64,000 nt of DNA, taken from NCBI GenBank assembly GCA_016933575.1, contig JAFGAR010000028.1:192001-256000 (forward strand). The letters run 5' to 3'. The notes under the pieces were generated by a model. The model made no database searches. It had not been told where the DNA came from and worked only from the letters and a program-made list of their open reading frames with translations. Every line of letters begins with the position of its first letter. Position 1 is the first letter of the stretch. A program made the position numbers and the translations under genes. The DNA is from Candidatus Thorarchaeota archaeon. GTDB lineage: Archaea; Asgardarchaeota; Thorarchaeia; Thorarchaeales; Thorarchaeaceae. Shown one piece after another: positions 4,202-24,900 of this stretch.

Positions 4202-7200
4202 ATGGCTATACGAGTTCTGATGGTCGATGATGATACTGTTCATCTAGAATTGAGTGAACGATTTCTGAAGCGACAAAGTCCAGATTACGAGATTGTTTCT
4301 GTTGAAACTTCAGATGATGCAATAAGACTTCTTGAAGAAAATGGTTTTGATGCGGCTGTCTGTGATATTGATCTCGCGGAGCAGACCAAGACGGGTCTAA
4401 ATATTCTAGAACATGTTAGAAGTAGGAGTGATGATATTCCTTTCATTATCTTTACTGGAAAGAGCAGAGAGGAGTTTGCTATCCAAGCGCTCAACCTTGG
4501 GGCGGACTACTATATTCGAAAGAGCTCAACAAATATCGAGGGACTCTATGCAGAACTCTCCTATTACATCCTTACTGCGGTTGCAAAACGGCGGACAGAA
4601 CGAGCTCTGAGAGATTCAGAACAAAAATTACGCGAGAGTGAAGCAAGGCTTGCAGAAGCTCAACGTATCTCACACTCAGGTAGTTGGGTATGGAATATTG
4701 TAGAGAATAAGGAAATTTGGTCCGATGAGATCTACCGAATCTTTGGACTAGCTCCACAGGAATTCCTTGCGACATATGAAGCATTCTTGGAATCAGTACA
4801 CCCTGAAGATAGAGAACTGGTGAAGAATTCAGTAGAAGCAGCCATCAAAAATCAAGAACCCTATAGTATAGACCATAGAATAGTTAGACCAGATGGTGCA
4901 ATAAGACATGTGCATGAAGAGGGGGAGGTTACCTTTGATGCAGATGGTACAGCTGTCAGAATGATGGGAACGGTACAAGACACTACAGATCGGATCATAA
5001 TTGAAGAACTCCTCCGTGAAGAAAGAGACCGGGCTCGAAAATATCTGCAATTGACGAATACGATGATAGTGGCTCTTGATACGTCATTCAATGTGACTAT
5101 GATTAACCGAAAAGGCTGTGAAATTTTAGAATATACAGAGGAAGAGATTCTTGGTAAGAATTGGATTCAATTCTTTCTACCAGAGAGTGGACGAAATGAG
5201 GCAGAAGAGTATCTCAAGTCCCTGCTTGATTCAAATGGAAATATTGGACCGTGTTGTAGTTTCAAGATACTCACACGAACAGGAACAGAAAAAACAATCC
5301 TATGTCATGACACGGTTCTTTTTGATGATGAAGGAGATATATCCTCAATTCTCTGTTCAGCTCAGCTGATTCCTGAAACAGGAAACATCGACCAACCAGA
5401 GATTACACTCATAACTCAATCATTGCGAGCTAGAGAGGAATGGTGGCAAGGAGTATTTGATCACGCCCCAGGTGCTATTGGAATATTCAATTCAGAGGGC
5501 CTATTGATTGATGCAAATAAAGCAGCAGTAGAGATGCTTGGCGTAAAGAATCGAGAAACACTTCTCGGTCTAAGTCTCTTCAGGGATTCCAACTTGCCTA
5601 AGCACGTCCTTGAGAGTGTACAACGAGGAGAGGTTCATAGATTCGACTATAAATGGGACTTTGGATATGTGTCAAGAAGAGGAATCCTTCCAACAACAAG
5701 GACTGAAGTCATCTATATGGATGTCGTTCTGTCACCACTTCAGGATACTAATGGACAATCAAGAGGCTATGTCCTTCATGCAACCGATATGACACATCGT
5801 CGGCGTACAGAACAAGCACTGAAAGCAAATGAAGAAATGTTCCGGACAATATTTGATGAATCACCAATCTGTATCGAATTGTTCGACTCGGATGGTATAC
5901 AAATAGGAGCGAATAAAGCAAGCCTAGAACTCTTTGGTCAGGAGAGTATAGAAGATTCAATTGGCTTTGATCTATTTGGAGATCCCAACACACCAGATTT
6001 TGTTAAGGAACACCTTCGAAAAGGTGCTGCAGTGAAAGCACAGACTCGTTTTGATTTTTCGAAAGTTCATTTACATGACCTATACAAGACAAAGAAGACT
6101 GGGATTCTTCATCTCGACGCAGTTTTTTCCCCGCTTCATTATGGCTCAGAAGAGGGATTACAAGGATATATCATCCATATTCAGGATATTACAGATCGAC
6201 ATCTTGCAGAGCAAGCCTTGATGGAGAGCAGGGAGAGTTACAAGGAGTTATACAATAATGCACTAATTGGTCTATTTCGTGTTAGAATCTCAGATAGCAT
6301 GATTCTGGAGTGTAATGAATACTTTGCCAAAATCTTCAGTCATGATGACAGACAGTCGATTATTGACGGTATGAGCTTTTTCAAAGATTTCCTATTACGT
6401 CCTTCATTATGGAATGAACTCAAAGAAACTTTGAAGAAACAAGAGCGCGTTATCACAGAGCTTCAAGTGACTTCGAAAGATAGCAAAAAACTCTGGATGA
6501 GGTTCTCATTACGCATAGCGACTGAAAAGGGACATATCGAAGGTGTGATGTCAGATATCACACAACAAAAACTTGCACTTGAGATGCTTCGAAACCAAAA
6601 AGAGGAACTTAGTGAATTTGCGCATTCGATGAGTCACGATCTTAAGAATATCTTACACAACATGCAGGGTTTTCTAGAACTAGCTGAGGACGAGAATAAT
6701 CTAACTCACTTGAAGAGACTTCACAGTCTCATCAATGACACTATTGATCTGTTGAATCATTCAGTTCTTCTTGCAGATGCGGGACTTGTTGTAGAAGAAG
6801 ACCTAACGGACGTTAATCTTGATGTTCTTGTTAGAGATGTTGCGGAATCGATCATTCCAGACACTATTGGCTATAACCAGGACAGTCTACCAGTCGTCAA
6901 GGCTGATGTAACAAAAGTGAGTCAAATCTTCAGAAACCTATTCGATAATGCTGTGAAACATGGAAAACCGAGGACCATTGAAGTCAGAAGTTACATTCGA
7001 GAAGGTAACATCTGTGTTGCGGTTTCAAATGATGGAAAAGACATATCCGATGAAATTCGACCGAAATTATTCTCAAGGGGATTCACAACTAGCAAGACAG
7101 GTCAAGGGTTTGGATTATCTATCGTAAAACGTATTGCTGAGGCGCATAAATGGACCATTCATCTTGTTGACACTAAAAAGACGACTTTTGAGCTACGTAT

Positions 7201-7225
7201 GCCTATCAATAATTCAGGAATGTAG
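4202..7225 (+). CDS. Hybrid sensor histidine kinase (REC - multiple PAS - HisKA - HATPase)
   Basis: REC VLMVDDD..CDID..FTGK..YIRK; PAS repeats (SGSWVWN, VHPEDRE, DITDR); H-box SHDLKN; N-box NLFDNAVKH; G2 GQGFGLSIV. Confidence 0.95.
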   Translation: MAIRVLMVDDDTVHLELSERFLKRQSPDYEIVSVETSDDAIRLLEENGFDAAVCDIDLAEQTKTGLNILEHVRSRSDDIPFIIFTGKSREEFAIQALNLGADYYIRKSSTNIEGLYAELSYYILTAVAKRRTERALRDSEQKLRESEARLAEAQRISHSGSWVWNIVENKEIWSDEIYRIFGLAPQEFLATYEAFLESVHPEDRELVKNSVEAAIKNQEPYSIDHRIVRPDGAIRHVHEEGEVTFDADGTAVRMMGTVQDTTDRIIIEELLREERDRARKYLQLTNTMIVALDTSFNVTMINRKGCEILEYTEEEILGKNWIQFFLPESGRNEAEEYLKSLLDSNGNIGPCCSFKILTRTGTEKTILCHDTVLFDDEGDISSILCSAQLIPETGNIDQPEITLITQSLRAREEWWQGVFDHAPGAIGIFNSEGLLIDANKAAVEMLGVKNRETLLGLSLFRDSNLPKHVLESVQRGEVHRFDYKWDFGYVSRRGILPTTRTEVIYMDVVLSPLQDTNGQSRGYVLHATDMTHRRRTEQALKANEEMFRTIFDESPICIELFDSDGIQIGANKASLELFGQESIEDSIGFDLFGDPNTPDFVKEHLRKGAAVKAQTRFDFSKVHLHDLYKTKKTGILHLDAVFSPLHYGSEEGLQGYIIHIQDITDRHLAEQALMESRESYKELYNNALIGLFRVRISDSMILECNEYFAKIFSHDDRQSIIDGMSFFKDFLLRPSLWNELKETLKKQERVITELQVTSKDSKKLWMRFSLRIATEKGHIEGVMSDITQQKLALEMLRNQKEELSEFAHSMSHDLKNILHNMQGFLELAEDENNLTHLKRLHSLINDTIDLLNHSVLLADAGLVVEEDLTDVNLDVLVRDVAESIIPDTIGYNQDSLPVVKADVTKVSQIFRNLFDNAVKHGKPRTIEVRSYIREGNICVAVSNDGKDISDEIRPKLFSRGFTTSKTGQGFGLSIVKRIAEAHKWTIHLVDTKKTTFELRMPINNSGM

Positions 7226-7304
7226 CTGGGAGCGAAAAAAGAAGAACCATTCACTCGGATACACAATACAACATCCTTAATAGGTTAAAATGGAAAACAA
7301 CAAT

Positions 7305-7430
7305 TGTGGTCAGTGGAATGGTAGGGCTTCGTTTTGTAACATGCCCTCATTACATAACTCCCCCCCCTCCAGTGATGTGGAATGCCCATATCGCGGGGAA
7401 TACCACATAGCTCTACTGTCCCTGGCCACA
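7305..7430 (+). ncRNA. Candidate structured small RNA (~126 nt)
   Basis: ~22-bp terminal stem (7305-7328 with 7409-7430) whose non-Watson-Crick pairs are G-U on the + strand; two internal hairpins; C-rich linker; TTAATA box at 7277-7282. Confidence 0.6.
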
Positions 7431-7506
7431 CCTATTCTCAGAATTGATTCCAGTCGCGAAGATGTTATATCTTCCAATTATCTTGGAAAACATTGAATTA
7501 CTAAAA

Positions 7507-8172
7507 ATGCATTCAAAGGTTGGAAACTTGAAGAAAGCCACAATCATTCTCATTATGTTAGTTATCATTGGTGGTTTTGCAGTCGTTCTATATCAAATGC
7601 ATGAAATCAATGAAAATACCTTTGATACAGGAGGACGTTATGATCCAAGTGTCCTAGACTACATGGGAGTGATTTATGCCAACAGGTCTGACATCGAGGG
7701 TTTCAATGAAGGATACAGCGGATCTACTGCATGCCCATGGGGATTCGTCCACAATGGGATTGATTATTTCTACTTCAACAACTCTGATGTCATTGCAGCA
7801 GCACCGGGATTGGTTGAAAAGATAGAATTACATGATTGGGGATTAGAAGCACAGCATCGTTATACTATTAGTGTAGAAATCAGGTTCAATGCCTCTGTGA
7901 ACCTACTGTACAATTTTGAACCTTGGACAAACTCTACAGACGAGCAGGCCCAACAAGTAGAGATGTTCAATATCGAAGTTGGGAGCTGGGTAACTAAGGG
8001 TGATGTTATAGCAAAATTTCTCCATGCAGGAGAAGGAGCGCACATTCATTTTGGAATTTACCAAGATGGCGAGGCGAGAGATCCAACTTTGTACCTATCA
8101 ACTGATGGATACAATGAACTCTTAGAAATGATCCATGATTTCCATCCGACATGGGAGATTAGTTATCCATAA
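7507..8172 (+). CDS. Membrane-anchored M23 family metallopeptidase
   Basis: N-terminal TM; HNGID (HxxxD), VIAAAPGLV, VTKGDVI, HIHF (HxH), DPTLYL; start uncertain (7507 or 7528). Confidence 0.75.
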   Translation: MHSKVGNLKKATIILIMLVIIGGFAVVLYQMHEINENTFDTGGRYDPSVLDYMGVIYANRSDIEGFNEGYSGSTACPWGFVHNGIDYFYFNNSDVIAAAPGLVEKIELHDWGLEAQHRYTISVEIRFNASVNLLYNFEPWTNSTDEQAQQVEMFNIEVGSWVTKGDVIAKFLHAGEGAHIHFGIYQDGEARDPTLYLSTDGYNELLEMIHDFHPTWEISYP

Positions 8173-24785: not shown

Positions 24786-24900
24786 TGAAAAACAAATCTC
24801 TGCAGTCCGGTGAAGTTCGCTCCACCGGACTGTGAGGAGGGAGTGGGTAGTTGAATACAGTGATACTCCAGGATGACCCACTCACAATGTGAGAACAACC
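24786..24900 (-). ncRNA. Candidate structured small RNA or 5' leader/attenuator
   Basis: CTTATATT box at 24930-24923; stem GAGTGGGT/ACCCACTC; CUCCCUCC linker; 13-bp stem with CGAA loop (24832-24803); T-rich tail. Confidence 0.55.

Follow-up and report, generated by a model that had tools for sequence, protein, structure and literature searches.

Two complementary arms, at 7305-7328 and 7409-7430 of the window (the whole 64,000-nt stretch of Candidatus Thorarchaeota DNA analysed here), raise the question of whether this locus encodes an RNA and, if so, what its mature form is and how it acts. As set out below, 7305-7433 (+) almost certainly belongs to a genuine family of RNA genes. The complete reading, which combines a structured RNA gene, a BHB intron and action in trans on G-rich ribosome-binding sites, has in our estimate about an even chance of being right as a whole.

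Structure and strand of the element

The stem arms, TTAATA, the TGTAA/TTACA hairpin and the C-tract described in the initial annotation were all located correctly. The + strand RNA of 7300-7435 has a folding energy of -53 kcal/mol, against a shuffle mean of -35.6 (z = -4.66; 0 of 200 shuffles equal it), whereas the reverse complement of the same segment gives z = -0.61. The strand asymmetry, previously inferred from G-U pairs and read as selection on RNA, is therefore real, and the same conclusion is borne out by covariation at 14 of 20 pairs of the stem (see below). The parts recognized outside the insertion at 7371-7400, which is treated separately, are as follows:

7275-7284 (+): BRE/TATA-like box CCTTAATAGG; TTAATAG begins 29 nt ahead of the first G of the stem
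7305-7328 with 7409-7430 (+): closing stem, TGTGGTCAGTGGAATGGTAGGGCT paired with AGCTCTACTGTCCCTGGCCACA, from sequence and fold
7305-7328 (+): 5' arm alone, comprising its strands of helices P1a and P1b, from the fold and from covariation at 14/20 pairs
7305-7370 (+): putative exon 1, with the 5' stem arm, U-tract, P2 and the beginning of the C-tract; its limit is taken from intron-less orthologues
7331-7358 (+): U-tract (7332-7335) and hairpin P2 (UGUAA/UUACA), from the fold of the spliced RNA
7340-7349 (+): cap loop of P2, CAUGCCCUCA, invariant in the alignment of family members
7359-7370 (+): exon 1 part of the C-rich single-stranded tract, UCCCCCCCCUCC, continuing as UACCACAU (7401-7408) once spliced
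7401-7433 (+): putative exon 2, with the rest of the linker (UACCACAU), the 3' stem arm (7409-7430) and an ACC tail
7431-7440 (+): pyrimidine/T-rich tail CCTATTCTC, a putative transcript end suggested by T-richness across members

Transcribed as a primary RNA of about 129 nt, the element would form a closing stem of about 22 bp and would thereby present some 45 nt of near-invariant loop, consisting of the U-tract, the hairpin showing CAUGCCCUCA, and the unpaired segment AACUCCCCCCCCUCC-UACCAC.

The gene would be read from its own BRE/TATA promoter at 7275-7284, in which TTAATA occupies 7277-7282. In 54 of the family's 61 aligned members, a TTAWWWR box begins 27-31 nt (mode 29) 5' of the stem, a fixed distance that agrees with the TATA box proposed earlier, and similar boxes, e.g. 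CCTTAAAA and CTTTATG, lie upstream of tRNA genes in the same genome. At the other end, at least 6 T residues are found within 14 nt after the stem in 35 of the 61 members. No contig matching 7200-7500 was found among those of three metatranscriptome runs from the same study. The covariation, the strand asymmetry and the constant spacing of the promoter box (54/61 members) support the view that the window element is a small structured non-coding RNA gene, selected at the RNA level and transcribed on its own.

A family of RNA genes in Thorarchaeales

A search for homologues and covariation in Asgard genomes, as the initial annotation had recommended, did reveal a family. BLAST with 7290-7445 as the query gave matches in 35 of 36 genomes of the same taxonomic family. 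A core motif, defined as AACATGCCCTCAT, 0-8 nt and AACTCCCCCC, was searched for by exact matching in GTDB species genomes and was found in 110 stretches; the 80 matches listed of these 110 all came from Thorarchaeota, Promethearchaeota or archaeal MAGs, except for one chance match in Micromonospora. Sixty-one distinct intron-less members were then aligned (alignment A2), and a covariance model (R1) built from A2 was run on 150 further Asgard genomes, sampled evenly. R1 matched all 26 Thorarchaeaceae (1-9 matches each) and, weakly, the single genome of a sister family (1/1; E = 2e-5), but none of the other 124 Asgard genomes of the sample. Among the genomes searched, the RNA family is limited to Thorarchaeales. 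A C-rich RNA of Odinarchaea was considered as a possible relative: R1 gave no match in three genomes of a genus with 1.4-Mb genomes, where the element upstream of hypC (L239:1935-2030) has no more than a loose grammar in common with the family and where no antisense target was prominent.

The element is not single-copy: in the window's genome, R1 identified three full copies, and a fourth, truncated copy lies at a contig edge:

C45:23862-23957 (-): full copy, 88.8 bits
7305-7433 (+) of the window: window copy, aligned over its full length, 64 bits
C148:840-933: full copy, 49.7 bits
C78:1-25: fourth, partial copy at a contig edge

A second candidate RNA in the window (24786-24900, - strand) was also tried as a family member; it is poorly conserved and was not matched by R1.

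The evidence for a conserved structure comes mainly from the closing stem. RNAalifold on A2 gave a stem of 20 bp in two helices with compensatory double changes at 14 pairs; 94.3% of the stem cells in the alignment are paired, 103 cells are changed on both sides, and none of 500 shuffles reaches any of five measures. When the 3' partner is slid by 1-3 columns, pairing falls to 28-48%. The closing stem of about 22 bp noted earlier is therefore well beyond chance. It begins with GUGG and ends with CCAC; A/C-C comes next and then, as a rule, a run rich in T. GUGG...CCAC and GGGC are the parts of the stem that are also conserved in sequence.

Within the stem, the parts of the loop follow in the order U4-5, Y, (N), GUAACAUGCCCUCA, a linker of 0-10 nt, and AACU-C(6-9)-UCCUACCA. 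This loop of about 45 nt is almost invariant across paralogues and genera, and AACUC(6-9)UCCUACCA is kept in all members. Three subtypes, A, B and C, are distinct in linker and stem, the window copy belonging to subtype A. Hairpin P2 forms in subtypes A and C, in which the linker permits it, and shows CAUGCCCUCA, whereas subtype B is without P2. The flanking genes show vertical synteny only, which extends across genera: the upstream neighbour is a PAS histidine kinase gene in subtype A and a divergent OsmC gene in subtype B.

A probable BHB intron in the window copy

In relatives, positions 16-77 and 112-151 of the BLAST query align back to back, the intervening insert being skipped, which indicates that the window copy has about 30 extra bases immediately after the C-tract. 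With 7371-7400 removed, the window copy reads ...CCCCUCC^UACCACAU... (the caret marks the junction), identical to the intron-less orthologues, which read ...CCCUCCUACCAC.... The closest orthologue, L007, is itself intron-less and has its upstream sequence in common with the window. The insert was examined under the BHB definition given in bioRxiv 10.64898/2026.10.13.758758 (section 4.8), in which the cut sites lie in two 3-nt bulges on opposite strands and at least one flanking helix, h (exon) or h' (intron), has 2 or more contiguous bp. The following parts were identified:

7371-7400 (+): 30-nt insertion AGUGAUGUGGAAUGCCCAUAUCGCGGGGAA, a probable BHB intron of the HBh' class, absent from orthologues and with the geometry at the exact junction
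7365-7368 (CCCU) with 7395-7398 (GGGG) (+): central helix H, 4/4 pairs, one of them G-U
7369-7371 (CCA) and 7399-7401 (AAU) (+): bulges of 3 nt each, a cut after the second base of each giving CUCC^UACCAC
7372-7380 (GUGAUGUGG) with 7386-7394 (CCAUAUCGC) (+): inner helix h', 9 contiguous bp
7381-7385 (+): intron loop AAUGC

The outer exon helix h has 0 pairs, so that the class is HBh' and not full hBHBh'. Shuffled inserts yield the BHB geometry at the window junction in 0.36% of cases.

Seven further members carry probable BHB introns of 30-32 nt, making eight in all, and these occupy three sites in the loop:

Site 1, GUAA^CAUG: L157, L158, L074 and L101; 30-31 nt
Site 2, CCCUCAU^AACUCC: L156; 32 nt
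Site 3 (the window's), CUCC^UACCAC (CUC^CUACCAC in L023): L023 (same genus) and L159 (another genus, subtype C); 30 nt

In each of the eight, the central pairs are complete (4/4) at the very junction that comparison with homologues dictates, whereas only 0.02-0.7% of shuffled inserts qualify. They share an architecture, namely an inner helix of 9 positions (6-9 of 9 paired) and a loop of 5-6 nt, in unrelated sequences; at site 3, the introns of the window, L023 and L159 have the same architecture with entirely different helix sequences. A metagenome scan for site-3 introns returned 31 pattern matches, one of which was a true member with the score and length of the copy in genome G017.

We therefore consider 7371-7400 to be, in all probability, a spliced BHB intron, judging from sequence and predicted geometry. 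Two EndA paralogues (188 and 213 aa) are encoded in the window's genome, at C57:215033-215281 and C16:35566-35823, which fits the heterotetrameric type of EndA; a passage in PMC5829648 describes this type as accepting relaxed motifs. RtcB gave no match in this 85%-complete genome and is present in 5 of 5 relatives, two of them of the same genus. The two EndA paralogues and an RtcB-type ligase would remove 7371-7400, leaving a mature form of about 99 nt that is colinear with those orthologues that lack the intron. The ~126-nt RNA with a three-way layout proposed in the initial annotation thus gives way to a predicted mature RNA of about 96-99 nt, one of the three arms being the probable intron. 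The two inner hairpins of that proposal fared differently: TGTAA/TTACA stands, while ATGTGG/CCACAT is better drawn as GUGAUGUGG/CCAUAUCGC, within the insertion that orthologues lack.

The alternative is that 7371-7400 stays unspliced, as a lineage-specific expansion hairpin in a mature RNA of 126-129 nt. Hairpin insertions that do not fit BHB do occur in or beside the loop of other members, L160/L162 having ones of 17-18 nt and the L102 group one of 23 nt (strict BHB geometry is lacking in these, in L114, which has a partial duplication, and in L029), so that the loop evidently tolerates extra hairpins. The outer BHB helix is also missing from the insert. However, the insert breaks an otherwise invariant tract; eight inserts have 4/4 central pairs and 3-nt bulges at a junction that restores the consensus, with the chance rate for each given above; their architecture is uniform in spite of unrelated sequences; and EndA paralogues are present in the genome. 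Retention of the hairpin is therefore unlikely in our judgement.

Known EndA substrates comprise tRNA, rRNA, cbf5 mRNA (PMC2738675) and the HVO_1309 5' UTR (PMC7714728). The insert shares with the BHB introns of these hosts the 4-bp central helix, the two 3-nt bulges and the intron helix, and is of the same size as tRNA introns of the window's genome, which are 30-33 nt and longer. It differs in that its host is a stand-alone small RNA, that three sites lie in one invariant single-stranded loop, and that there is no outer exon helix. A literature search found no publication on this Thorarchaeal RNA, and none that describes a stand-alone small RNA with a BHB intron. Asgard tRNA genes, which are heavily interrupted by introns (bioRxiv 10.64898/2026.10.13.758758), resemble the present genes in promoter style, in encoding a multi-copy stable RNA and in the sporadic occurrence of BHB introns between close relatives; here, in contrast, there is no cloverleaf or T-loop, and paralogues share one and the same loop, unlike tRNA isoacceptors, which differ from each other.

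Possible modes of action

Spliced in silico, the window RNA has 99 nt and a folding energy of -32.4 kcal/mol (z = -5.2), and its 20-nt tract UCCCCCCCCUCCUACCACAU is fully unpaired. The C-rich tract contains a C8 run at 7360-7367 followed by TCC (UCC as RNA), and its predicted unpaired probability in the spliced RNA is about 0.9-1.0, in keeping with the single-stranded state assigned to it in the initial annotation; CCUCC and CCCUC are both unpaired in the predicted fold. The motif CCCCCCCCUCCU ends in CCUCCU, as does the 3' end of Thorarchaeal 16S rRNA. No 5-mer is more enriched than GGAGG (8.9-fold) upstream of start codons in the window's genome, where it precedes about 9% of long ORFs, by a crude assignment of starts. 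The mature RNA may thus act in trans through its exposed CCCUC and CCCCCCCCUCCU, which are complementary to GGAGG-type ribosome-binding sites; these C-rich motifs would pair with G-rich translation-initiation regions, which would thereby be masked. Archaeal sRNAs that mask ribosome-binding sites are known, i.e. sRNA154 and sRNA41 of M. mazei (PMC5867862). We favour masking of SD sequences as the mode of action, though only tentatively and at rather less than even chances, on the basis of these complementarities.

Searches for more specific targets were of limited help. An extended antisense target was sought in the window's genome with blastn-short, and the matches were of 13 nt at most. Only about 17 genes of this genome have a GGAGGGG-type SD, and the best candidate for a G-extended SD, GGAGGGGG, codes for the C-terminal Gly-Gly-Gly of a ThiS/MoaD-like gene lying upstream, which makes a comparative test of G-extended SDs uninformative.

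The RNA resembles sRNA154 and sRNA41 of M. mazei (PMC5867862) and RoxS/RsaE of Firmicutes (PMC5419742) in being a stand-alone RNA with its own promoter and in having unpaired C-rich motifs, in a hairpin loop and a linker, that are complementary to GGAGG-type SD sequences. There is no likeness to them in sequence or by covariance model, and the resemblance is one of predicted working, not of homology. The Thorarchaeal RNA differs from them in its far longer conserved region (about 45 nt), in its several paralogues per genome and in its introns.

The extent of the conservation also bears on the mode of action. An invariance of about 45 nt, found in paralogues older than the genera, far exceeds what an antisense seed needs and points to a larger interface, for instance with the ribosome, with a protein or within a tertiary fold. 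The main rival to SD masking accordingly keeps the same gene and intron and takes the invariant loop as a protein-binding platform, i.e. an RNP scaffold or decoy. Besides the invariance of the whole loop across paralogues and genera, the sequence conservation of the stem parts GUGG...CCAC and GGGC and the conserved U4-5 tract adjoining the stem argue for it; Sm-like proteins could bind this U-tract. As an example of a decoy, the loop could mimic the single-stranded 3' end of 16S rRNA (through CCUCCU and, in subtype A, also UCGUAACA) and so titrate factors recognising that end, such as KH-domain aDim2/Pno1 with Nob1, or a/eIF2. Among the structures listed in PMC12127562 is that of aDim2p in complex with this end of 16S rRNA (PDB 3AEV; Jia et al. 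2010). In two genera, CCUCCUAC reproduces the 16S 3' end and the two trailer bases that follow it, and the collinear match of UCGUAACA and CCUCCUAC to the tail (subtype A against genome G035) is reached by 39 of 3000 shuffles. However, the likeness to the 16S tail was noticed post hoc; with subtypes B and C, or with the second genus, it is weak, 0.07-0.5 of shuffles doing as well. GUAACA is not kept in divergent members, which have GUUACA, GUACA or GAACA; the resemblance of subtype A to the 16S 3' tail is marginal. Nor is there a conserved gene for an RNA-binding protein nearby: no conserved RNP partner gene was found beside the RNA, the neighbours being genes for a histidine kinase, OsmC, a zinc-ribbon protein and a methyltransferase. 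On balance, we give a protein platform chances only slightly below those of SD masking. A more elaborate proposal, in which the RNA would be the core of a Thorarchaeales-specific RNP and, as tRNAs and rRNAs are, a stable RNA class habitually processed by the BHB machinery, its loop imitating the single-stranded 16S 3' end and controlling small-subunit maturation or translation initiation, seems to us decidedly improbable.

Other identities considered

Known RNA classes were also searched for. At gathering thresholds, Rfam 15 gave no match in the whole window, and scanning 7150-7550 at E values up to 10 gave noise only, such as SNORD56 on the other strand (15 bits, E = 2.6); the Rfam scan called for in the initial annotation thus assigned the RNA to no known family. 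ARAGORN found no tRNA or tmRNA in the window. These results uphold the earlier statement that the RNA matches no tRNA, 5S, SRP or C/D-box pattern. A tRNA was rejected on structural grounds too, the RNA being a single long stem and loop with no cloverleaf and no GTTCRA-type T-loop, and a C/D or H/ACA guide was rejected for having no conserved boxes in A2 and no Rfam match above noise, and because duplexes of the loop with 16S or 23S rRNA had energies no better than those of shuffled loops.

The locus might also be not an RNA gene but i) a DNA-level repeat (MITE), in view of its inverted-repeat ends and its multiple copies in a genome, ii) a cis-acting leader of the downstream peptidase-like gene, the element lying 10-75 nt upstream of an ORF on the same strand, or iii) part of a small ORF (7290-7496), whose 68 codons overlap it. 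For a MITE, the 3-4 copies have different, covarying stems, the orthologues are syntenic across genera, the G-U pairs are strand-specific, and the core motif, sought in viral contigs, was absent from them; MITE behaviour, which the initial annotation had named as a refuting sign, was thus lacking. As to a leader, the downstream genes vary among orthologues, and a conserved coding frame is excluded by the length of the C-tract, which varies from 6 to 9 among members and would shift any frame. All three possibilities are very remote.

A homologue of Y RNA working with a Ro60-type protein is likewise highly improbable. Y RNAs (RF00019) and bacterial Y-like RNAs are likewise about 100 nt long, with a long bulged end stem, in which the two ends form the closing stem, and a pyrimidine-rich internal loop, and there is a short likeness, UGGUC...GGUAG, to the stems of vertebrate Y RNAs. 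In the Thorarchaeal RNA conservation is highest in the loop, rather than in the stem, whereas the loop of Y RNAs is their least conserved part. The basal helix GUGGUCAG/CUGGCCAC is without the conserved bulged nucleotide of a Ro-binding helix, no Y_RNA or other Rfam match was obtained at E up to 10, and TROVE/Ro60 (PF05731) was found in none of 41 Thorarchaeal genomes (the window's and 40 others) in searches that detected the positive controls, in line with the earlier view that this is not a Y RNA.

Significance

As the host of a BHB intron, a small non-coding RNA that stands alone would represent a new class, such introns being unusual outside tRNA and rRNA, and would widen the range of known hosts. 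Since the introns are sporadic among congeneric species and occur at three sites, the family offers a compact natural system for intron gain and loss. Annotation of Thorarchaeal genomes by covariance model should cover the RNA family and permit introns. Its presence in all sampled Thorarchaeaceae, the strong constraint on it, its several paralogues and its absence from Rfam make this RNA a good candidate for an important lineage-specific function.

Other structured elements in the window and in related genomes

A second structured RNA candidate in the window, at 24786-24900 (-), is predicted to fold into two hairpins and a closing stem, with ACUCCCUCCU lying between the hairpins (MFE -48.4 kcal/mol, z = -3.86). 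It was not matched by the covariance model of the 7305-7433 RNA. Since a BLAST search of 24 same-genus genomes returned only two matches, both weak and partial, this candidate, judged from sequence matches, is not a conserved family, unlike the 7305-7433 RNA.

In an Asgard genus with a 1.4-Mb genome, a three-way RNA-like element divergent from hypC was observed at L239:1935-2030 (+), with the loop UUUUGCUUCUCCCCCUCUCCCCCCUCUAG. It has a loose grammar in common with the Thorarchaeal RNA family (U-tract, CCCUC and C-run-UCU) but is undetected by the family model, and a search for an antisense target in the same genus found none.

At 241937-241990 of contig C57 of G000, the genome containing the window, a ThiS/MoaD-like ORF with the C-terminus ...FPPVGGG* is followed by a 469-aa gene whose ribosome-binding site it overlaps. 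The SD-like GGAGGGGG at this position is created by the Gly codons of the ORF, and the overlap is kept across the family (orthologues L213-L236).

Insertions in the RNA family, tRNA genes and 16S rRNA

The bulge-helix-bulge (BHB) geometry of archaeal introns could not be fitted to the insertions found in some further members of the RNA family:

Insertions with no BHB fit
L160:101-216 and L162:99-213 (-), a 17-18-nt CCCGC/GCGGG hairpin 3' of CCCUCAU
L102:3405-3524 (-), a 23-nt hairpin ahead of the 3' stem arm
L114:2757-2912, one partial tandem duplication

The 23-nt hairpin of the L102 type is kept in four species, with covariation.

ARAGORN identified only 17 tRNA genes in the whole 3.47-Mb G000 genome, with introns called in about half of them, which suggests that many intron-interrupted tRNA genes were missed by the program. 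The 3' CCA is encoded in the tRNA genes of G000. A gene for the RNA ligase RtcB was not found in the 85%-complete G000 assembly; it is present in all five relatives checked (G001, G017, G035, G110 and G177), and its absence from G000 is probably an assembly gap.

The 16S rRNA of G110, from one Thorarchaeal genus, contains an insertion of about 100 nt within helix 45 (L171, about 1425-1530, -), consisting of three CACAUUUCGUG-type hairpins and absent from a second Thorarchaeal genus (compared at L172:3880-3910). A single rRNA intron, or several of them, in the 3' minor domain may account for this insertion.
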